Shown here: piece by piece, positions 20,588 through 51,554 of the stretch
Layout of the letters: each line of letters opens with the position of its first letter
Position numbering within the stretch: position 1 is the first letter of the stretch
Assembly: GCA_000934665.2 (NCBI GenBank)
Contig: KZ539027.1
Coordinates: 1-55,482 of the forward strand
Direction of reading: 5' to 3'
DNA length: 55,482 nt
Origin: Catajapyx aquilonaris
Lineage: Eukaryota
Position numbers and translations under genes: made by a program
The notes under the pieces: model-generated
Databases searched by the model: none
Seen by the model: only the letters and a program-made list of their open reading frames with translations
Told to the model about the DNA's origin: nothing

Positions 20588-23500
20588 ATGTCGAGGGCAA
20601 TGTTCTCGCCGTGTTTTTCGCCGTCTAGGGCTGTGCTCTTCCTTTCCTTGTTTTCGGCCCTGCTAGTGTCTGCCGGGCAGGCCAAGCCCAAGTCCGGCCT
20701 GGTGAAACTAGACGAGGACAACTGGTGGCAAATCCTGAAAGGGGAATGGATGGTTGAGTTGTGAGTTGTGCTATGGAATGATTTTGGGAGGGGATATGAC
20801 ATGGAAGAAAGTACAAATGGACAGTGGTTGACAGCTATCTTCATTTTATAGCTTTGCCCCATGGTGCCCAGCTTGCAAGGCCTTGCAGCCCATCTGGGAG
20901 GAGTTCGCAGGATGGAGCAACGACCTGGGGATACAGGTTGGACAGGTCGATGTGACAGCTTCACCTGGACTGAGTGGAAGATTCATGGTTGCGGCCCTGC
21001 CGACTATTTACCAGTATGTATGATGTTCACATAGGACATAGCCCACTGCATTACAGCCGGGTCTGGTGGTTAGCGCGCTCGCCTCTAGACCCAAAGTTGT
21101 GGGTTCAAACCTGGCCGAGGTCGGTGACTTTTCTCCTGGTGGTAGAAAAGTGAGAGTGCGCCTTCTTTTGGAGGGGAAGTAAAGCCGTCGGTCCCGTGTG
21201 CTTGTGACATTGCGCGAGTGCACGTTAAAGATCCCCAGAGTGGCCAAATTTCCAGGAGGAGGACCACCCCCTGGCGTCGGTGTTGAGCCTAGCAGCAGAA
21301 ATAGGCCGACGTTAAGCCCCCACTAAAGCCCACTGCATTTTGCTGGGGCTGATATGCTGGGCATTACAAGGGTGATCATTTTTTAAGGCCCAGCCTGCAA
21401 TAATTACTGATAACCTGTGGGTTTTACTAGGAAGAGACTGTGCTACAACATAGCCCGGAGCCCAACAGGCTCGCCAATTAATTTAAGATTTAAGTCTATG
21501 ACAAAGTGGCATTTTAGCCATAATGAACAGTCTTGTTCTGTGTGACCCTCTCGCTTGTCTATTATTTCTCACGTGGCAGTGTTGACAGATTTTGTGGTTT
21601 GATTGGGAAGAAGCCAAACAGAGTAAAGGCCGGTGTACACATAAAGATTTCTCGCGCGCGAGGAGCCGATTGCACATGCCCGGATCCAAGGAACGAGGAA
21701 AAGTAGAAAATTTTCAACTTTGATCCCCTTTCCGAGGGACCAAAGGGGCCCTGAGGCGATAAAGAGTCTGTCTCGACGGACAAGATTCCTGGCTCAAGAG
21801 GACTCGTGCCCGAGAAACTTTTACGTCGATACAAGCCTTAAGGCTAATATGCTATTAGAAGATATGTGGGTGGAACAGATGGGGATAGAAACAAAGAAAA
21901 AAAGGAGGCCAGAGAAGACTGGTGTGTCGCTTTTTCTCCTAACCCAAAAATACATTTCCAGCTTGGGAGATCCTGTCAGTAGCTATAGCTTATAGCTGTT
22001 GGGGTTGTAAGAAAAATACAGCAAGGTGGCGATACCATATGGGGACATTTTTGCAGTAGGTCGTGAGTGTGACACCTGCTCAGGTGCCAATCATCACATC
22101 ATGTGCTGGCTACCAGCTGATGAATATTTTATTTATATACTACAGTAACCTAATAATTATAATCTAACCTCCCTTTCCTAACATATGGAAACCTAATTGG
22201 CCACTTTTTCTAGGCTGCACACAGTAGTATGCGATCTTATTGCTGCTCCTTCACTCACAGTCAGTGTCCATCACTCAACACCAGCCTTTTCCTTTTCCTT
22301 TTTTCCTTTTTTTTTTAAATTCCAAAAAATGGTTAGCTCGCAAAATATATTCTGTAAACAGGTCAATTCAGGTTCCAGACACTGTCCCATACAAGCAGTT
22401 TTTTGCAGTGAAAAAGTACTTAGAACACTCCCAAGGCTTGACATTAAGCAGCTGTGAAGTGTGAAGTTGTCTTCTTTGTACAGTAAATTACTCCAACTTT
22501 AGAATAATCATTGCAAAAGCATGATTTTGTATTGCTCGGTAGTGTGAAATCTCAGGTCCATTATGTCATGGGATCATACCGTTATCATAATCACCTCACA
22601 CTTTCCTCTCTTACCAAAGTATTATTGTGAAATAATACGAGGAGTGATCAGAAAGTAAGGTCTCCAAGGCTGTAACCTTTATTCTGTATGAACACAAATG
22701 ACGAAACTTACAGGGTAGATGAGGACAATGGAGATCTACTTTTCGATGTAGTTACCACACCGAAGAACGCACTTATCCCATCGCCAGACCAGTTTCTCAA
22801 TCCCTTCCCAATAGAAAGGGGTGCCCTGTTGACAGCACCAGTCACACACAGCCTTCTTCGCCTCATCGTCGCTTCGGAAATGCTGACCTGCCATGTCTGC
22901 TTTCAGGGCTCTGAATAAGTGATAGTCTGTGACGGCTAGGTCGGAACTATAGGGTGGATGAGGAAGAACTTCCCTGTCGTATTCATTCTGCAAAGCCATG
23001 GTATCCCTCGGTGTGTCTTGACGGACGTTGTCGTGGAGAAGGATGACCCCAGCAGTGAGCAATCCTGGAAGTCGCGACTATCAATTCGGAGAGATACGCA
23101 GTGAGCAATCCTGGAAGTCGCGACTATCAATTCGGAGAGATACGCAGTGACCCTGGCGAAGTTGCAGAAGGCCATCAGGTGGAAACGACCAGGATTGCTC
23201 ACTGCTGGGGTCATCCTTCTCCACGACAACACCCGTCAAGACACATCGAGGGACACCATGGCTTTGCTGAATGGATACGACTGGGAAGTTCTTCCTCACC
23301 CACCCTATAGTCCCGACCTAGCCCTCACAGACTATCACTTATTCAGAGCCCTGAAAGCAGACATGGCAGGTCAGCATTTCCGAAGCGACGATGAGGCGAA
23401 GAAGGCTGTGTGTGACTGGTGCTGTCAACAGGGCACCCCTTTCTATTGGGAAGGGATTGAGAAACTGGTCTGGCGATGGGATAAGTGCGTTCTTCGGTGT

Positions 23501-25279
23501 GGAAACTACATCGAAAAGTAGATCTCCATTGTCCTCATCTACCCTGTAAGTTTCGTCATTTGTGTTCATACAGAATACAGGTTACAGCCTTGGAGACCTT
23601 ACTTTCTGATCACTCCTCGTATGTCAAATGATGATTGTGTAAATTTATGGTTATTGTTTTGCTATAGCCTTCCATGATTATTCAAAAGCTGATTAACATG
23701 GAAGGTGACTACACAGCTGTTTAGTGCCAAGTCTAAGGAGTCTTCTAAGTACTTTTTTCATGTGATAAACTGCCAGGAAGAGGCAGTTTTGGGGGCATGA
23801 AGTGACCTATTTGGCTGTCTCTTTTGCTAAGCTGCCATTTTTCAGATCTGGAAAATATTTGAAGAGGGTGAAATGATGGACAATTCATGATGGGAGGATC
23901 AGTATGATCATGCAATACTGCATGCATCATGGGAAAATTTGTCAGATAGGTTTAAGAACCTTAAGAAAGGGAGGTTAGGTTAGGTCAGCGTAGGTTGGTA
24001 TGCCTGTTAAAAATTAGTCACAGGATCACCTGGCAGCTAGTGCATGATGTAATGATGATGACTTGGGCAGGTATTGCACTCTGAATAGTCGACTACTCCA
24101 AAACTTCACAATTAGTCCTGGGCAATAAATGGCCAATGTGAAAAATGGATGCACAAAATTGAGCCAAGTTCTCAATAGTTGAAATACCACTATGTCATGT
24201 TTTTCAACCTTGAAAGTGTACTTGGTGAACCTTTTGGGTTCTGTGCTACGTTGGAGTGTAGGGGTCAATTTTTCATCCTACTAGGCTACTAGTAATCATG
24301 GTATCCCATGAAAAGCTTATGGGAGACTCTTGACTAGTAGAAGCAGGCTAGTAGCAGAGCCTTCGCAAGTGGACAAGAAACCAACCCTAGGTTTTTGGAA
24401 ACTCTTCCAGATTATGGTAAAATAATTACCAAATTTAGCATGTATATTTCCTCAGTATGTTCAAAGGTTAGTGGCTGGGTTATGGAAATCTCAAGTCTTT
24501 TTCTGTGCTTTCTTGACTCTTGTGATTTACATTTTACTTGTTGCTCATTAATTGATTAGAACATAAGGGCATTACTGTTGGCCTGGTGAGCAGAACATTA
24601 CTCAGCATCTATAATATTAAATGCTTCGTTGCACGACCTAGCCCTCTGATTGCCCCGGCCGCATATTGTTGTTACCGCACGCTTCCTATTGGCCCCCATT
24701 TATTGTTACCTCGACACCTCCAATTGGCCCCATTCCGAGCATGCGCAATGGGTGGAAGAACGCCACGGTCGCTTGCTGGACATCAACGAGGACACTTCTC
24801 TCCCGTGAACACCCCTCTATCCTTCCGCCCTCCTCCACCCACGTCGTCACGGTGACCTCACAACAGGGGAGGGGGAGAGGAGGGGGGAATGGCACGCCGT
24901 AAACAAACAGAACACAGGCTATAGTCAGGATCTGTTATTTATCAGTGGTGCTAACTCCACGGACGTTTAATAAATAAAGTAAAATAATTTCAGTTTTTAA
25001 AGCAAGGTCCTTACTGGTACCCCCACGGAGAGAGTGGGTAACCAGGATTGACCGGGATATACAACACTGAACCCGGGGATAGGTCGAGAACGTCAGAAGA
25101 AAGTGTCGGGGAGAATGAAACCAGTGTTTGATCATTTAATACAAACACTGCCGAGTTCCATGGACATTTATAAGAAAGGGGAGTTATGAGCAGTTAGAAA
25201 AACGTGGTCTGAAAGTGTGCGTATAATTTAGATACATGTGCGAGTGCAGAGGCAATAGAGGTTGTGAGTTTCCGTTCAT

Positions 25280-42601: not shown

Positions 42602-43269
42602 CAGGTTGAGGATCCTTTATTAGAAATTCCAAGAACCAAATATAATGGAAAATTCCACGTGAGTGTAACATTGACTAGCATAATCTCTATCTGTACATAT
42701 ACAAAATTATTTAAAATTTCGGGGGAGGTGTGGTGGCCGTGATGGTAACGTCACGGCTTGCTGAGTGAAAGGCCCCAGGTTCGATCCCCGCCTGGGGAAC
42801 TTTCCTTTCACCTGCGTCAGGAGGGTCTCTGGCCTGCACCAAGGAGGTGTCTGGCAACCTAACCTCCTGGGGGACAGCACATGACCCCTTTACCGACATT
42901 GCGCTTGCACCTATGTTCCCTCCCCAAAAAATCCCTATCCCTACCCTACAGCCTTGTCTCCTTGCACCGGTGTATGAAGTTAAGGAGTGAAAATGGTGGT
43001 ATCCCACCCCCCTAAAAAGGCTAAGCCTTAGCACGGGGTAACGTAAGAAAAAAATATATATTTAAAATTTCTATGAAACTACCTCCAGGGTTATGTATAA
43101 CCTCCATTAAGAAATGTTTGTGGATATCGTGTTGAGGCATTTATCCCATACCAAAGCCGTCCCATTTTATATATGCAAATACTGTATGCAAAGATTCCAA
43201 AATATGAAAAAATATGACATCCAAAACCCTTCTGGTCCGAAGCATTTTGGATACAGGATTCTCAACCTG
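42602..43269. mobile_element. Tigger/pogo-like MITE hosting SINE A
   Basis: TA|CAGGTTGAGGATCCT ... AGGATTCTCAACCTG. Confidence 0.65.
42721..43058 (+). mobile_element. tRNA-derived SINE, family A
   Basis: Closely similar to 958-1316, TSD TATTTAAAATTTC (42708-42720 / 43059-43071). Confidence 0.9.
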
Positions 43270-43488
43270 CGTAAAAGGTTTTACAGAAGATCTGCACTAT
43301 CAAGAAGGTTTTTGCATCTTCATGTTGTATGAAATATGAGGTATAGCATTGCAGACAGCTAATGTTACATAATTATGTAGAACTGCCAAAGTATTATTGC
43401 GCAATTAATTTCACATGGAGTTTGAAGAAAAGTCTGGTTATAATTTTGTGGCACGTCCCTACCCCCCCCCCCCCCCCACACACACACA

Positions 43489-43790
43489 GTCTTGTAAGAC
43501 ATTAGCTATGGGGACATTGATAACACAACTTTTGAAACCTAGTTTATCCTAACAAAAACTAACCTACCTTATCCTACTTAACCTAACCTACCCTAGTAAC
43601 CCTACCCTACCTAGGCTGAGAAAAATGGAATTTTGGAAAACCCAATTGTTGGGACATGTCTCCACTGAAGTAGTACCACATCAGGCATTTTAGCTGTGGG
43701 GACCAAATATGTCCCCACAATTTGGAAAATGTCCCCACAGTTACAGTTAAAACACCCACTTCCGTCCCCAGAGCTAATGTCATACGGTCA
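43489..43790. mobile_element. Non-autonomous element with (CTAAC)n-like tract and GGGGACA/TGTCCCC repeats
   Basis: GACATTAGCT.TGGGGAC ... GTCCCCAGAGCTAATGTC inverted ends. Related copy at 47995-48316. Class uncertain (Helitron/Helentron-like or MITE). Confidence 0.6.
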
Positions 43791-43900
43791 CGAAATCTAT
43801 CTATGGCACACCCAGACATGTGTGGACTGTTGTAGAATCTTGAATGAACCGTCTTGATCAGTGGCATTTAATTAGACGCAAGAATAATTTTTTTAAATGC

Positions 43901-43906
43901 TTTATT
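43901..43906 (-). terminator. Polyadenylation signal AATAAA downstream of tectonic
   Basis: TTTATT on the + strand, 60 nt past the tectonic stop. Confidence 0.65.
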
Positions 43907-43965
43907 ATGACAAAACAGTATAAATAACAAATTGATTGACTCTTACATTACTAACATTGCAAGAA

Positions 43966-45840
43966 TTAATAAACTTGGTGAGATAAAACGCATCCCCAAA
44001 ACAATCCAGGTATTACCAGCATGAAGGTGAAGAGACACCAGCAAGACATTGAATCATCCTTAGTGCACATAAATGGGTAATAAAAGTCATGTGGTAACCT
44101 GAAGTCCACTCTCGGTGGATATCCAAATATCTGTTCCACTTCTCCTGTCAGGTCTACAAAGCTGACCTGAGTTTCTAGGTGCAATGGTGGGCAACCTGTT
44201 TGACCACATTTTATATCCTTCCTTGTGCCGAGCTTGTACCTGACCCCTATCACTTTGGCTTGGGGGTCGTCCACGTCACCCACATTTGCGTAGATGATAG
44301 TTATATCTAGGAAGTATGGTATGGATGTGCTACTTGCAGTAGGGCATACCACCTTAACCCAATCATCACCTTCCAGGGCATCAAAATTACCAAAAGCGGC
44401 TGCATACATTTGGTTGTTTCTATTGCAATTATCCACCAAGTCACCTAGTAGCAACTCAGTTGCACTTTGATGCAAGTCAGGGAAGTTGTTGGAATGGTTT
44501 ATGAGACATGAAATTTGTGTATCAACACCAAACTCAACTGCTGATCTATGTGAATTGCAGTCTTTTGTGAGTGTGGTCACAACTGTTGTGTCAGTAGAGC
44601 TGTCAGATGAATTCGTCATTTTCAGCATGATAGGGGAACCATGTTGATACCCAGGGTTGCCACTACGATGCCATATGGTAATGTTTGATGAGTTATTATT
44701 GTCATTGTGCCAGTGGAATGTGATGCTGAATTCCTGCTCAAGAGTGGGTTCAGTAGTGTTTTGCAATGTAAAGTATGCATCTATGGAATCGATACCAGCT
44801 GTATTGTTTTGGTGTACAAAAAACGACACTGACTTGACTGCATTGTGACACTTCCCACTCTCTGATTCATATGGTGTTGGCAAATCATTATTGCACTCTG
44901 GGACATCGCAGTAGGCATGGTAACACCAGCATACAGACATATTCACCGAGTCATATTCAGTTGGTGATTTCAATATAGCCACATTGTACGTTGACGCTGC
45001 AAGCGCTCCCATCTTGTTGCATTCTACTTTTTGTGTACATGTTTGTGTTACATCTCGCATATACCGAACAGGCCAGGCCACGTTGCACTGGTCACCCAAC
45101 ATGGCTGCTGGTAGACTCCATTCTGGCCCTATTGTATTGTCAAAAAGCAGGATGGGCTTTCCAGAAGTATATGATGTCATGTGGCCACCTGTGACACGCT
45201 TGGGGGAGTGCCACCGGTATTGCTTTTGCCTTGTTACTTTCCGGAACTCACTCAAAGTTTCAATTTTACTGTGTTCTGGCAGTTTGCTTTCTTGTACTAG
45301 ATTGTCTCGGTATATGCAAAACATACCTGGAACTTTACGGCTGACATAGTACTCCGTATTGTTCCATAGCACTAAGTCACTCTTGAAACAATATCGTGGA
45401 TCTATCAGTGGTGGCTCATGATCAACACACCTTGAAAATGCTTGCCGGTCCCATGTAGTACAATTAGGATCACAACAGCAGTCAATGTCACATGTTTCAA
45501 CTGTGAGGTCACACTGGCATGCATCGGCTTGTCGATATGCGAAAGGTCTTACATAGCTCTCTGGGGGCTTTGTGACATTACATAATGTTCCATTTTCACA
45601 CAATGTTGAATTGTCACATAATGTTCCATTTTCACACAATGTTGAATTGTCACAAGATGTTTCATTGTAACACAATGTTGCATTGTCAAGCTGCATTGTA
45701 ACATTATCATGCAGAAATGTCACATTGTCATACAGAAATGTCACATTGTCATACCATAATGTCCCATTATCAGGTGAGACTGTTGTAAAATTTCTGCTGA
45801 CTACTCCAATTGCAAAAAGAAAAAAAATACTGTAGTACAT
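43966..45840 (-). CDS. tctn: Tectonic family ciliary transition-zone protein, 624 aa, single exon
   Basis: Signal peptide MYYSIFFLFAIGVVS, tectonic hallmarks CQCDLTVETCDIDCCCDPNC, SGNPGY..G.P and LPHDFYYPF, and a hydrophobic C-terminus. The first ATG is at 45840 (the ORF track starts at a TTG). Confidence 0.93.
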   Translation of the reverse strand: MYYSIFFLFAIGVVSRNFTTVSPDNGTLWYDNVTFLYDNVTFLHDNVTMQLDNATLCYNETSCDNSTLCENGTLCDNSTLCENGTLCNVTKPPESYVRPFAYRQADACQCDLTVETCDIDCCCDPNCTTWDRQAFSRCVDHEPPLIDPRYCFKSDLVLWNNTEYYVSRKVPGMFCIYRDNLVQESKLPEHSKIETLSEFRKVTRQKQYRWHSPKRVTGGHMTSYTSGKPILLFDNTIGPEWSLPAAMLGDQCNVAWPVRYMRDVTQTCTQKVECNKMGALAASTYNVAILKSPTEYDSVNMSVCWCYHAYCDVPECNNDLPTPYESESGKCHNAVKSVSFFVHQNNTAGIDSIDAYFTLQNTTEPTLEQEFSITFHWHNDNNNSSNITIWHRSGNPGYQHGSPIMLKMTNSSDSSTDTTVVTTLTKDCNSHRSAVEFGVDTQISCLINHSNNFPDLHQSATELLLGDLVDNCNRNNQMYAAAFGNFDALEGDDWVKVVCPTASSTSIPYFLDITIIYANVGDVDDPQAKVIGVRYKLGTRKDIKCGQTGCPPLHLETQVSFVDLTGEVEQIFGYPPRVDFRLPHDFYYPFMCTKDDSMSCWCLFTFMLVIPGLFWGCVLSHQVY

Positions 45841-45841
45841 G

Positions 45842-48800
45842 TTAGTACTCGACTCCAAAGTCTCTGAAGTTTTTGAACACGATGGTCAACTCGAGATGCA
45901 CTGTTCCCATGGACTGTGTTTGTAGCCGGTACCGGTCTACTCCAGTGTAGACCAACTCGGGGGATTTCAGTTCAGGTCCTCCTCCAAGAAAGAACTGTAT
46001 GATCCTGTCCTGGGTTGAGCTGATTGGTCGCCAGGTCTGCACCTCAATTTGATGGAGTCCAGGTGTGCATGGGATGTAGCAACAACCGTATGCGTAGATC
46101 TCACTGCGGCCAAATACGTCTAGATGGTACACTTCCACATGTATCTTCGGCCAACCTATGAGCAAAATCCAGTTTTTAAAATCATTATGTAACATTGTAG
46201 AAAGAAGACAATCTTCCTATTATTAATTATTTTCCTAGTTGGAGAGTAGAATTCGTAGGAATTACAATAAAGGGAACAATAATGGTTGAGTAACTTTATG
46301 AAGTTTAGGGCGACACGGTGGCAGAGTGGTTAGCGCCGGAGCCTTCCACCTCTAAGGTCCCGAGTTTGATCCCCGGATCGGACAGAGGATACTTATGTGG
46401 ATAGAGTTTCGATGGGTTCTCTCCGTGTTCGCGTAGGTTTTCTCGGGGTTCTCCCGTTTCCTCCCACTATCAAAATCGATCACAGCAAAGGCAATGATTA
46501 AAGACGGTAAATTAAAAAGATGATCCCCTAAAAAGCCCAAGGAGGCTTATCACGGGGTATCCATTATAAACTTTATGAAGTTTATCATGGCAGATTTATA
46601 TACTGTATGTCCTTGATTAATTATACTATTTGTTTGCTGATCTCTCTCATTGAGATTTCCCCCTTGATTTGTTCTTGCCAATTGATGTCGCTGATGTACC
46701 CAAATGTGTATATGAAATAATAATTATGTATCATTCATGTCAACCCAAACAAAAGTGGTCCGTAGGCCCCTCAAAAGGGGTATGTGAAAATATTTCAGGT
46801 GTGTACAGGGTGTCCCAACTGAAATGGACATAGAGGTTAGCGATTTCTTACACTAATCTGCCTCCTGATCAGTTACTTTAGTAGTTATCAAAAATATGAA
46901 CTGATAACATTAGCTTGAATGGGTGCATTCATTCAAAGTATCAGTTGCAATTTACATTCTTCAGACATTGTGACTGTCACTTTTTAACCCACTGCAGATG
47001 CACTTGATGTCAATAGTTGGGCTCATTAGCACTTCCAACATTGTGTTACTCGAGAGGGGCTTGACCAGAATATTTGGGCAAAGGATGCACATGCTGACTA
47101 ATCAAACTGTATGTGTCTAAAGGCTGATTACCAAACACCTCTGCACATGCTAAAGTCCGCTATGCTCAGCAATCAAGATGTATAAATGATGGAAAGAGTA
47201 ACCCTTCCGGGCGTGCAGGAGGAGGCAAGGGGAGTGGTGGCTGGGGGTAGCTTGGCTATGTCGCAAAGGGAAGGATGCAAAGATTGATTTTTTGGATTTT
47301 CGAAGGGGTATGCTGTACCAACCTAACCAAACCAAGCCTAACCTTCCTTCCTTGCGGATACAGACCTATCTTTGCGACACAGCCCACTGCCCCCACCGAC
47401 TACTACCCTCCCGCCTCCCTCACGCCCGTAAGAGCAAGTATATCCTAAATGATAAGCCGGACTTAGCACAGGTATCTCATTTTCAATTATTGTAATATAT
47501 TATCACCATTATGTAAATATCCTTAAATACAATTGAAACCATACCCTGCTGTCTCTTTATCTCACTGGAACATGTTTTCACTGTTGCCAATTATTATCCA
47601 TTGGCTGTGCCATAGATGTTACCTGATGTTACCCAAGACCTGTGCATACTGAGGTTCTTTTACCATATGTTCCAGGGCCTGAGATCAAGACACCATTTCA
47701 ATCGTATTTAATGATATTTACAAAATGGTGATAATTACAATAATCGAAAACATAATCACCTGATATCTGAAGAGGCGCTGTATTGTTGGCTAGAGATGAA
47801 CCTGGATGCGAAGAGATACCTGTCCTAAGTCTGACTCATCTTTTATACATCTTTATTGCTGAGGATAGCGGACTTTAGCATGGACAGAGGTGTTTGTTAA
47901 CCAGCCATTAGACATGTACTGGTACGCTGGTACTATGGGGCTCAAATCTTGAAGGAACCCTTATTCACAGACACACACACACACACCCACTCTTGTCTTG
48001 ACTAAGGCGTGGGGACGGACATTGATCACTTTTCACTGCGAGTGTAAACTGATCTAACCTAACCTAACCTAACCTAACCTACCCTACCTAACCTACCCTA
48101 CCCTAAGTAACCTAGGCTGAGAAAAATGGACTTTTGTGAAACCCTACAAATGAAAATAGTGGGGACATGTCCCCACTAATTTACACATGTCCCCACTGTA
48201 ATGGTACACTTCGCGTGTGTGAGACTGTGGGGACCGACAAATGTCCCCACAATTGGAACTGGTCCCCACAGCTACAGTAAAACCACAGACTTCCGTCCCC
48301 AGACCTTAGTCAAGACCTGATCACCTGCTCAACGTGGGGCCTGTGAGAAGGGTTGCTTCAAGTTCAAGACCAGGATAAAGTGGCCAAAACAATTTGAGCC
48401 CCATAGTACACTTTGATTTGTCAGGGTGTGCATCCTTTGCGCAAATATTCTGGTCAAGTCCCCCTCGAGTAGCAATGGTTTGAAAAGGATGCACTCTGGA
48501 CCTGCTAATATTTTATAACTTCAAACATAGCTATTTTAAAGTCACTGATTATAAGTAATCAGCTTAGTGTGAAAAAACACAAACCAATAAGTTATGTACA
48601 ATTCATTTGGAACCCACTAATAATGGTTGACAAGTTATTGGCATTAGTCTGATATAATTATTACAGTATCAGCATGGGCTGATTACCTGAGGTCAATTAT
48701 GCTGAGGCCAGAACATATGGAAAAGTGTGCTTGTAGTAATATGGTAATATGCACTTATACAGGATGGCCATAAAATCTGGAACCAAAGGCAGTATTTTTT

Positions 48801-50320
48801 TCAAGTTACAGGTAAGCTATGGCAATGACAAAGACGACTGGGTTGTGTTAATCCTTCTTTGTGGACAAGAGGTATGGACGCAAAGAGAGATGGTGTCCAA
48901 GTTCAATAGGAGGCATCTGGAGAGGTCAATAAGTCATAGGGCAGTTGGAAAATTACTAATTGGCTTATTGACCTCTCTGGATGGATCCCATTGAGCTTGG
49001 TCGCCACTTCCCTTTGCATCCATTCCTCTCATCCACAAAGAAAATTAACACCACCCGGTTGTCTTTCATCACTACCATAGCTCACCTGTAATCAGCAAAC
49101 AATACTGCCATTGGTTCCAAACTTTATGGCCACCATTTGGAATTGGAAAAATTATGTGACAGATTATTATTGTTGCACAGGATTATAGCAAAGTTTGCAG
49201 AGAGAAGAATGGTTCCATGGCAGGAAAAAAAGTCAAGACCCCTGGCTTAAAGCTAATCAAACCATGCAGTTTTAATTTAAACTGTGCTCTCATGAGATGT
49301 ACCAGTGACCCAGGCTGTGACAGTGTCATAGGTTCTCTCCACAAAAAGGGCATGATACAGTTTACTCTCTGAATAATGGAAATTTTCTCAGTTATGATAT
49401 TTTGGAGATTAAATAACATCTACTCATAGAGTGATTCCCTATAACCCAGGAACTCACTCTTTAATGTTATTGTAATGTTTATGAAACACTGCATCATTAC
49501 TAAATGAATGCCCCTTGTACAGGATGGCCCTAAATGCCTAAAGTCTGGACACAGGCATATGTAATTTTGTATTGTATTGCTGGTTGACAACTGGCAACCA
49601 ACAATACAATATGTGCCCAGACTTTAAGGCCACCCTGTGTAGTGACTGTAAATGGGAATGTGAGGAACAGTGGTAGGTAGACTTATGTTGTAACTATACA
49701 CACCTTTGATACCTTTGGTTCCATAATGTATGTCAATAGGGTGGCTCCAGCAGGAAAAGTTGTCATGAACGGGGCAGTCTGCTTGTGTTTGTCCTTCAAC
49801 CTCACCTTCCAAAACCAACCATGCGTCTCCTAATAAAATATTTTTTTTGTATAAGTTTAACAAGTATCAGGAGCACAAGTACAGTTTTAAAAAATTACAT
49901 GCATGATACCTGCTGTAATAACAGAGCGAGAGTGATTCAGGCCGGGTTGCACCGACTCCCGGAAAATCTATCCGTTCGAAAAAGAGCCAGGATAGTTTAT
50001 TATTGATTGTTGACAGAATTGTTGACAACAATCAATACCAAACTATCCTGGCTCTTTTTCGGACGGATAAATTTTCCGGGAGCCGGTGCAACCCGGCCTC
50101 AGTCATGGATACAAAACTAATGCATATCCCTGCCATCTTGTTCCCATATTATGTCAAATGAAATCAATGTTGGTGCATGACAGTAACGGGTTATTTGTTT
50201 ACTGCATTAAAAGTGCCAAGTTTGGGTCATACCTGCGCCACAGTAAAACTTGCAGAAGATGTTTCGACCTGGAAAGGACTTGCCTCCGACTATCTCTCCG
50301 ATTACGTGAACTTCAGCCAT
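45842..50320 (-). CDS. B9D2: B9 domain-containing protein 2, 175 aa; exons 50320-50233, 49829-49704, 46155-45842
   Basis: MAEVHVIGEIVGGKSFPGRNIFCKFYCGA|GDAWLVLEGEVEGQTQ...WSHPIDIHYGTKGIK|GWPKIHVEVYHLDVFGR...FRDFGVEY*. Exons of 88+126+314 nt with phase-1 GT-AG introns. Confidence 0.95.
46308..46568 (+). mobile_element. tRNA-derived SINE, family D (B9D2 intron 2, antisense)
   Basis: GGTGGCAGAGTGGTTAGC A box, GAGTTTGATCCC B box, TSD AACTTTATGAAGTTTA (46292-46307 / 46569-46584). Confidence 0.88.
47050..48470. mobile_element. Nested inverted-repeat TE cluster in B9D2 intron 2
   Basis: Outer arms 47050-47170 vs 47858-47915 plus 48408-48470. Inner TACTATGGGGCTCAAAT...ATTTGAGCCCCATAGTA element (47932-48409), which itself contains the CTAAC-repeat element (47995-48316). 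Confidence 0.7.
48760..49136. mobile_element. Palindromic Tc1-like derivative
   Basis: GGCCATAAAATCTGGAACCAAAGGCAGTATT ... AATACTGCCATTGGTTCCAAACTTTATGGCC. The left arm has an HTH-like remnant (QREMVSKFNRRH...ISHRAVGKL). Confidence 0.7.
49940..50098. mobile_element. Harbinger-like palindromic MITE in B9D2 intron 1
   Basis: GGCCGGGTTGCACCG ... CGGTGCAACCCGGCC with 3-bp TSD TCA. Confidence 0.85.
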
Positions 50321-50331
50321 TAGTTCTTGAC

Positions 50332-50345
50332 GTTTTCATGGCAGG
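50332..50345 (-). promoter_or_regulatory. X-box-like (RFX) motif upstream of B9D2
   Basis: Minus strand CCTGCC-AT-GAAAAC matches RYYNYY-N1-3-RRNRAC except at the first base, about 12 nt upstream of the ATG of a ciliary gene. Confidence 0.5.
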
Positions 50346-50579
50346 TAGCGACCACTGCGACGCTACCACTAGGATACAATAACCCGCCGGTCGATCGTCC
50401 AATGCTTGATGACTCAGAGTGCAAGCAGGAAGCAGGTGGCTGCCAGGTGTTCACCTGGTGGATGGTAGGGAGTTCAATCGATATGACTTCAACACTGTAA
50501 AGGCTGCCAAAGAATTGTGTTGTAAACAACTCTAGTTCAACAATAACAATACTGTTGTTGCTACGCAGTTTTTCAGCTA

Positions 50580-50669
50580 TTATATCGCTCAAAAATAAAG
50601 ATATTTGATTCTAGTGCAGGCTGCACACGAGTCAAATGCAAAATCGTCTCTATGGTTTTCAGCGATATA
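50580..50669. mobile_element. Degenerate hairpin MITE, P100 copy
   Basis: TTATATCGCTCAAAAA...GAGTCAAATGCAAAATCGTCTCTAT...GCGATATAA. Confidence 0.7.
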
Positions 50670-51554
50670 ATACATCAACAAGCACTGTTTACTTTTTACA
50701 ATCCTTATTCATTACTTTATTCACTACCCGACTCTTTTACGTTAATCGGAAAAAGCTTTTATTACAACAAGGCATAAGGGTACACACTGTATATTACAAC
50801 TACGCAATATGCTCCCCGGAATATATCGAAAGTGAGATTTACAAAAGAGTGACAAGAGCAAATAACATGGATTATTTTTCATATCTGGCCCTGATGTGCA
50901 CACAGTAGCATATTGAATAAATATGATCTACTAAGCTTTCATACACACATTCTGCAATGGCTTTCTTCCGATAAGGTATAGTCGATATACCGTACAGGAC
51001 ATACGGGTTGTGATGCGCCATTCGTAAGTAGAAGGAAAATATATGAAAAAACCTCGATCTATGTTTATAGTAGTGCAACAGAATGTTGAGTAGCCTAGGT
51101 TGGGTATTAGCCGCAGTTTAAACGGAACGTGACCGAATTCAGCGCCTCGCTCGAGGCTATTATCGAATGTTCCAGACACTCCAGGGTCCAGGCACTGCGC
51201 ATTTATTCAGTATGAGATCATTCACTGGCCCTTGAACTCCCTACGGACTTCCTCGTCTATTGCCTAACTACGTTTTAGGATAAAATGCGACAAACACCTC
51301 CCCTTAGCGTATTTTCGCATAGGCACTTTCAGAACAATCATGCGCCGGGATGTAATAAGTTACATAGAATAAGCCTACTTCTGGATGCTTTCAATATCAA
51401 TTTAATTACTCGGTACAGTCTACTTGGGTTATTATAAAAATCGACCACGGGTTCGTTTTTAGGTTTATTTTTACGAGTTTTAATTATTAGTTCATATATG
51501 TTGGGTTAGCTTTCATCTCCCTTCATCGCTGACTACCCCTCATAGGGAAATGTC

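Follow-up and report, generated by a model that had tools for sequence, protein, structure and literature searches.

A single nucleotide separates B9D2 from tectonic

The stretch analyzed here, contig KZ539027.1 of the Catajapyx aquilonaris assembly GCA_000934665.2 (55,482 nucleotides (nt), hereafter the window), carries on its minus strand two neighboring genes, B9D2 and tectonic, with one base between the stop codon of the first and the start codon of the second. The features of this pair are given below from upstream to downstream.

50233..50320, minus strand: B9D2 coding exon 1, with the ATG at 50320-50318, 29 codons plus 1 nt, and a donor GT at 50232-50231
49704..49829, minus strand: B9D2 coding exon 2, 126 nt, phase 1 at both ends, Pfam B9-C2 match of 3.8e-08
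46156..49703, minus strand: B9D2 intron 2, 3548 nt, repeat-rich
45842..46155, minus strand: B9D2 coding exon 3, ending with the stop TAA at 45844-45842, Pfam B9-C2 match of 1.4e-34
45841, minus strand: intercistronic spacer, consisting entirely of one C
43966..45840, minus strand: tectonic open reading frame (ORF), intronless, 624 amino acids (aa) plus the stop TAA at 43968-43966
43901..43906, minus strand: first canonical poly(A) signal after the junction, AATAAA, 60 nt past the tectonic stop
43872-43867, minus strand: second poly(A) signal, ATTAAA, after the AATAAA at 43906-43901

Read on the minus strand, the junction consists of GAG TAC TAA at 45850-45842, the single C at 45841, and the ATG at 45840-45838, which has an A at position -3. 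The seven bases at 45841-45847 read TACTAAC, the yeast branch-point consensus, and are followed by T-rich signal-peptide codons and an AG; the junctions of relatives do not keep this motif, and it is therefore treated as a coincidence.

The three B9D2 exons, with GT/AG at every boundary, add up to 528 nt and encode 175 aa plus the stop. The predicted protein aligns end-to-end and gap-free with the 175-aa B9D2 of the planthopper Nilaparvata lugens (97/175 identical residues), and the product of exon 3 alone is 60% identical to the B9 domain-containing protein 2 of this species. The upstream cistron is thus identified, by its predicted product, as a B9D2 ortholog. The position of its first intron, after codon 30, is common to five of the metagenomic loci described below (L021, L037, L040, L050, and L020). 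Intron 2 is the sole non-coding place where an internal tectonic promoter could lie.

Pfam analysis of the translated downstream ORF gave DUF1619_N at 4.6e-08 and TCTN_DUF1619 at 2.4e-18 (PF25752 and PF07773). Translation of 43966-45840 yields 624 residues with no internal stop. From stop to stop the frame measures 639 codons and is the longest in the window, where the runner-up among 25 frames of at least 110 codons reaches 231, and the ORF retains 26/26 invariant columns of a 33-sequence tectonic alignment; for these two reasons it is not a chance ORF. Both ends of the translation are hydrophobic, with a signal-peptide-like N-terminus and a C-terminal segment that match, as expected, a signal peptide and a C-terminal membrane anchor. 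The downstream cistron is accordingly identified as a predicted tectonic ortholog that begins at an AUG of its own and has an N-terminus resembling a signal peptide.

Some further features lie within the pair. A short upstream ORF at 50313-50339 (minus strand; ATG at 50339, eight codons and a stop) runs across the start codon of B9D2 in a different frame and would be relevant only if transcription begins further upstream. Intron 2 contains a (CTAAC)n array of 12.6 copies at 48054-48114, whose opposite strand is the TTAGG motif, the ancestral arthropod telomere repeat; the array fits an interstitial telomere-like tract and is consistent with an arthropod origin. The tectonic ORF holds two in-frame tandem repeats, at 45580-45688 (period 36, 3 copies) and 45697-45772 (period 21, 3.6 copies), in its N-terminal part rich in N-x-T/S, whose length and sequence vary among relatives too. 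The small B9D2 gene has introns at conserved positions, and tectonic is intronless in the window as well as in L021, L037, and L039.

Poly(A) signals and X-box-like motifs

The minus strand was scanned for AATAAA and ATTAAA from 50700 to 43600. Every site is intronic until the AATAAA at 43906-43901, and none was found from B9D2 exon 3 to the tectonic stop. With a spacer of 1 nt there is no room for a promoter or a 3′-end signal between the two coding sequences. The initial annotation of this DNA, made from its letters, had described the same junction (TAA, one C, ATG at 45840 in an AAC ATG context), and the minus-strand reading with its A at -3 agrees with it. Its assignment of the genes as B9D2 and a 624-aa tectonic holds on the Pfam matches and the translation, and its placing of the first AATAAA (43901-43906) after tectonic, with no poly(A) signal between the genes, was confirmed by the motif scan.

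In 6/11 loci, X-box-like motifs, which resemble the binding sites of RFX factors, are present no more than 500 nt upstream of the B9D2 ATG. The 4,622 nt covered contain 11 such motifs, where about one would be expected from a background of 75 in 330,312 nt. This enrichment is consistent with a ciliary promoter at the B9D2 end of the pair. In the window itself, the palindromic X-box consensus gave 6 matches with up to three mismatches (2.8 expected) and the degenerate consensus 10 with at most one mismatch (12.9 expected). No convincing X-box was found upstream of the window B9D2, where there is just a two-mismatch site at 50332-50345 (minus strand), 12-25 nt before the ATG, which alone is too weak for an RFX call. 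Between B9D2 exon 1 and the tectonic ATG of the window, no X-box match with at most one mismatch was found.

Named relatives and fused gene models

A HMMER scan with tectonic retrieved 700 relatives at E ≤ 0.001, the closest of them 36% identical. Sequences from a spider, a tick, a mantis shrimp, a hemipteran, an orthopteran, a shrimp, and a krill are among the best named relatives. A separate protein homology search gave two matches for tectonic and two for B9D2 exon 3. Gene models fusing the two proteins were sought with a B9D2 query against all stored proteins, and Pfam was run on 30 of the 150 listed representatives. The B9D2 N-terminus is fused to tectonic in 2/150 listed representatives, the first two of the models below.

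Eretmocerus hayati (wasp), KAJ8682994.1: B9D2 N-terminus plus tectonic
Habropoda laboriosa (bee), XP_017794479.1: B9D2 N-terminus plus tectonic
Palaemon carinicauda (shrimp), isoforms X1 and X3: fused, with isoform X2 beginning with a signal peptide instead
Daphnia magna, KZS20961.1, named 'B9d2': fused, 806 aa
Daphnia sinensis: fused, 796 aa

Both Daphnia models contain a complete tectonic, with its start methionine and signal peptide about 11 residues after the B9D2 part, and RefSeq has a separate 642-aa tectonic model for D. magna. Literature searches on a tectonic-B9D2 fusion in Daphnia found nothing relevant. A further H. laboriosa model, KOC70282.1 (P0156, 2619 aa), is named Rho guanine nucleotide exchange factor 12 and opens with the B9D2 N-terminus; it is another mis-joined model at the B9D2-tectonic locus.

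These shrimp, bee, and wasp entries raise the possibility that the locus mainly makes a spliced B9D2-tectonic fusion protein. Our reading of the window sequence would allow it, since both B9D2 donors are phase 1 and the tectonic frame is open for 15 codons before its AUG, so that an acceptor placed there would be in frame. However, the join point differs in each fused model, and the signal peptide of tectonic is lost or buried at these joins. Differing join points are what is expected when a predictor restricted to one coding sequence per transcript meets a dicistron. The window B9D2, moreover, is full length with its own stop and gap-free against a stand-alone B9D2, and the tectonic AUG and hydrophobic N-terminus are kept in all 14 lineages of the metagenomic survey below. 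We therefore consider a fusion protein as the main product highly improbable. The fused models do imply, as far as such predictions go, the same gene order and strand as in the window.

Gene order and spacing in metagenomic loci

Metagenome contigs were scanned with two conserved tectonic motifs, which gave 76 loci, and B9D2 was sought in them by tblastn with two B9D2 proteins and by a six-frame hidden Markov model search. B9D2 lies directly upstream on the same strand in 20/76 loci; in none of the 76 was it found downstream or on the other strand. Among the 56 loci without B9D2, the first detectable tectonic segment is preceded by less than 1 kb of sequence in 26 and by at least 1 kb in 30, several of the latter beginning mid-gene or being intron-rich. 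Where the nearest named relatives of loci lacking an upstream B9D2 were looked up, they proved to be a bryozoan, a limpet, a crinoid, a rotifer, and a choanoflagellate.

The 20 positive loci were merged into 14 lineages (L021 with L043 and L053; L026 with L027 and L029; L031 with L033 and L034). Spacing, counted between the last base of the B9D2 stop codon and the ATG of tectonic, is as follows.

L059: 17-nt overlap
L021 group: 1-nt overlap (TGATG)
L050: 1-nt overlap (TAATG)
L036: 4 nt
L016: 5 nt
L023: 5 nt
L002: 7 nt
L039: 7 nt
L040: 7 nt
L020: 8 nt
L001: 13 nt
L037: 15 nt
Two termite-like groups: 47 nt each

Twelve of the 14 lineages thus fall between a 17-nt overlap and a 15-nt gap. In every lineage the ORF at the junction opens with a hydrophobic stretch and runs, directly or via an intron, into tectonic. 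A purine occupies position -3 of the tectonic AUG in 13/15 junctions (the window and the 14 lineages). The tectonic proteins of these lineages are just 25-40% identical, and the spacing has therefore been retained while the sequences diverged.

Two kinds of locus have closer named relatives: the L020 tectonic is 63% identical to that of Daphnia, and for the termite-like groups the identity to a cockroach tectonic is 59-61%. A quick maximum-likelihood tree unites the window, all included positive loci, and the named arthropods in one clade (Shimodaira-Hasegawa-like approximate likelihood ratio test (SH-aLRT) 91). Within this clade the window is placed near a tick and a spider, where support is weak and branches are long; what we take from the tree is that the window is arthropod-like. 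Taken as they stand, the junctions indicate conservation of both the gene order and the stop-start abutment throughout Pancrustacea and, probably, throughout arthropods.

The Drosophila pair

File S1 of Crosby et al. 2015 (PMC4528330) lists tectonic (FBgn0261697) with CG42730 (FBgn0261683) at 2L:6127872..6130651. The entry in this FlyBase table reads 'all di/polycistronic', 'unrelated', and '2 nt bet. stop/start'. Vieillard et al. 2016 (PMC5037411) equate CG42730/CG42731 with B9d2/tctn, state that both genes overlap in the genome, and describe both as required to assemble or organize the Meckel syndrome (MKS) complex in Drosophila. B9d2 would be the upstream cistron in the fly by analogy with other arthropods, not from the fly table. 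The window locus is identified, on this comparison, as the ortholog of the annotated Drosophila B9d2-tectonic dicistron.

The initial annotation had described the fly genes as adjacent and probably dicistronic, and the FlyBase table (PMC4528330) confirms this. It had also placed both proteins in the MKS module, in line with Pratt et al. 2016 (PMC5087661), where B9D2 and tectonic are listed among the core MKS module proteins. Its broader suggestion of an ancient, functionally coupled eukaryotic bicistron stands in part: it holds within arthropods, with fused models in four named crustacean and insect genera and with 14 metagenomic lineages, and the linkage was found only in arthropod-like sequences, not across eukaryotes.

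Literature searches, which left out one supplementary file, found the fly pair described as a dicistron solely in the supplementary table of PMC4528330. Arthropod-wide conservation of the B9D2-tectonic stop-start junction was not found in these searches. The fly arrangement is thus already annotated, and what the present analysis adds is its conservation among arthropods.

Evidence for a probable single transcript

Among the merged loci, L043 lacks exactly the 70-nt GT...AG B9D2 intron that is kept in L021, reading '...cgattcag' straight into 'gtgataac...' and then, via the TGATG junction, into tectonic. The two also differ by indels in a repeat region and so represent different alleles or strains. 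L043 may possibly be an intron-loss allele; a spliced RNA carrying both ORFs would be the simpler reading. The third member of this group, L053, has a 62-nt gap (around its position 1084) relative to L021:1574-1635, a segment that L043 also keeps. This gap was not taken as evidence of splicing: its ends are not GT/AG, and the tectonic frame is broken. The gap is probably an assembly or reverse-transcription artefact.

B9D2 and tectonic are probably made from one mRNA, a reading indirectly supported by the exclusively dicistronic transcripts of the fly pair, the apparent splice in L043, the X-box-like motifs upstream of B9D2, and the 1-nt spacer. The genes could instead form separate overlapping units, with a tectonic promoter in B9D2 intron 2 or exon 3 and ordinary scanning to the tectonic AUG; the B9D2 mRNA would then end at a non-canonical poly(A) site or carry tectonic as an untranslated tail. 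The 3.5-kb intron 2 does offer room for a promoter, and of the 159 dicistronic loci in Drosophila, 114 additionally produce a monocistronic transcript from at least one of the two genes (PMC4528330). The separate 642-aa D. magna model points the same way, as does L028, whose tectonic exists without B9D2 directly upstream. A promoter of its own, however, would not hold the tectonic AUG at most 15 nt from the B9D2 stop in 12 of 14 lineages. The fly pair is listed as 'all di/polycistronic' (PMC4528330), L043 joins an apparently spliced B9D2 to tectonic, and the X-box-like motifs lie upstream of B9D2 with none (at most one mismatch) between exon 1 and the tectonic ATG of the window. Separate units are, on balance, quite unlikely.

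Translation of tectonic

We favor a model in which one dicistronic mRNA is made and tectonic is translated by termination-reinitiation, to which we assign a probability of about 0.6. This reading is based on the forms of the junction (TAA-C-ATG, TGATG, TAATG, gaps of 4-15 nt, and a 17-nt overlap) together with the purine at -3. A single promoter upstream of B9D2 exon 1 would drive one pre-mRNA, from which the two B9D2 introns would be removed and which would be polyadenylated solely after tectonic. Cap-scanning ribosomes would first make B9D2, the cytosolic MKS-module protein of 175 aa. At the TAA, a fraction of the small subunits would remain bound to the mRNA and initiate again at the AUG two bases on. 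This second initiation would yield tectonic, a partner from the same module that carries a signal peptide and a membrane anchor. The outcome would be a fixed expression ratio of two interdependent proteins, possibly both made at the surface of the endoplasmic reticulum (ER). That tectonic is translated by restart is what we infer from this arrangement, as is any advantage of the coupling.

Several observations weigh against this model. Restart after a long ORF (175 codons here) is held to be inefficient and is described in PMC10275272 mainly from viruses with special RNA elements. Nothing resembling such elements emerged here: the UGGGA motif is not conserved, occurring within the last 120 nt of B9D2 in 2/5 sequences, the 151-nt junction region folds no better than shuffled sequences (z = -0.13), and an Rfam search of 43000-51500 gave no match. 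The B9D2 start has a pyrimidine at -3 in 7/11 loci, including the window, so that some leaky scanning may occur. The 47-nt spacers of the two termite-like lineages contain two small intervening AUGs. L028 lies inside the arthropod clade, with a clear tectonic start and no B9D2 in about 980 nt upstream; it may represent loss of the linkage in this lineage or, alternatively, a second copy of tectonic. Any non-canonical poly(A) signals within the tectonic ORF would yield B9D2-only mRNAs, the scan having covered AATAAA and ATTAAA, and co-transcription in the window organism is itself deduced from its DNA. As a separate observation, the tectonic of L028 (1-1500) has its own start and a signal-peptide-like N-terminus.

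Leaky scanning was examined as a route to tectonic through the AUG content of B9D2. The window B9D2 has six internal AUGs, three of them in good context, L001, L023, and L039 have four or five, and the 5′-truncated L043 has three; in each of these five ORFs, the out-of-frame AUGs match synonymous-codon shuffles in frequency. With 4-6 internal AUGs in the four complete ORFs and no depletion, leaky scanning is unlikely and was rejected as the route.

The same dicistronic mRNA might nevertheless produce tectonic without terminating ribosomes, through internal ribosome entry at a site (IRES) within the 3′ part of B9D2, shunting, or leaky scanning past a weak B9D2 start. According to the FlyBase authors, IRES use may be common among fly dicistrons (PMC4528330), and the B9D2 AUG has a pyrimidine at -3 in 7 of the 11 loci. 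An IRES, however, gives no reason for a conserved stop-start abutment, and the ordinary fold of the junction and its lack of an Rfam match speak against one, while the internal AUGs of B9D2 would stop leaky scanning. Initiation of this kind appears unlikely.

A stronger form of the termination-reinitiation model can be put forward only tentatively: an obligate dicistronic mRNA, present from at or before the base of the arthropods and kept since, in which synthesis of tectonic would fall to ribosomes that had just reached termination at the end of a first cistron of 175 codons. If true, the pair would be a cellular, element-free counterpart of viral stop-start coupling, the ratio of the cytosolic and membrane MKS partners would be fixed, and their synthesis could take place at the same ER-bound mRNA.

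Comparison with known systems

The closest counterpart is the Drosophila pair, which has the same two genes on one strand, nearly abutting (2 nt in the fly, 1 nt in the window). Unlike the fly, the window host is deeply diverged (best tectonic identity to any representative 36%), its B9D2 has a 3.5-kb intron and its tectonic none, and its dicistronic transcript is predicted, whereas the fly pair has annotated dicistronic transcripts. Other fly dicistrons with short spacers in the FlyBase list are Rad1/CG34314 (1 nt), CG13175/CG33964 (15 nt), and Snapin/CG9960 (18 nt) (PMC4528330). They likewise encode two unrelated full-length proteins per mRNA, with stop and start a few bases apart; in contrast to them, the products of B9D2 and tectonic share one complex, and the junction is traced across many arthropod lineages.

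Viral examples of termination-reinitiation include calicivirus VP1/VP2, with a termination upstream ribosome-binding site (TURBS) element, and influenza B M1/BM2, with UAAUG. The TURBS motif is an 18S-complementary UGGGA. As in the viral mechanism outlined as 'scenario 2' in PMC10275272, the first ORF of the B9D2-tectonic pair is long, stop and start overlap or lie a few bases apart, and two functional proteins would result at a fixed ratio. The TGATG and TAATG of the relatives resemble the viral stop-start overlaps. Unlike the viral cases, B9D2-tectonic is cellular, and no conserved TURBS-like motif or structure was found.

Spliced-leader operons of nematodes and tunicates are cut into monocistronic mRNAs, which requires an intergenic 3′-end signal and a trans-splice acceptor. 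Co-transcription of neighboring genes, predicted for the window, is common to both systems, but a spacer of 1 nt fits neither signal, and there is no AATAAA or ATTAAA before the tectonic stop. Green-algal bicistrons combine a weak first AUG with an upstream ORF free of AUGs, in contrast to B9D2, whose 4-6 internal AUGs are no fewer than in shuffles. These algal loci, which are bicistronic and use leaky scanning (PMC11892635), are like the window pair in being conserved nuclear loci with two ORFs on one capped mRNA, a transcript that is predicted for the window.

Other features of the window

A Pfam analysis of 118 further frames from the window, each with 75 codons or more, returned only DUF3915 and DDE_3, both sub-threshold. 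The latter (8.4e-04) comes from one of two similar transposase-like frames that lie in opposite orientation on both strands of 22739-23518; these are remnants of a mariner-type element. A run of N is present near 18.9-19.0 kb.

Implications

The B9D2-tectonic junction is kept within a few bases across branchiopods, decapods, hymenopterans, termite-like insects, and lineages that group with chelicerates. Such spacing, retained at 25-40% protein identity, points to selection on translational coupling, not on gene proximity alone. The pair is a good model and a natural cellular test case for this coupling, amenable to Drosophila genetics. Annotation pipelines that allow one coding sequence per mRNA fuse the two genes or drop one of them, so that catalogues of arthropod ciliary genes may wrongly call tectonic or B9D2 missing or chimeric.

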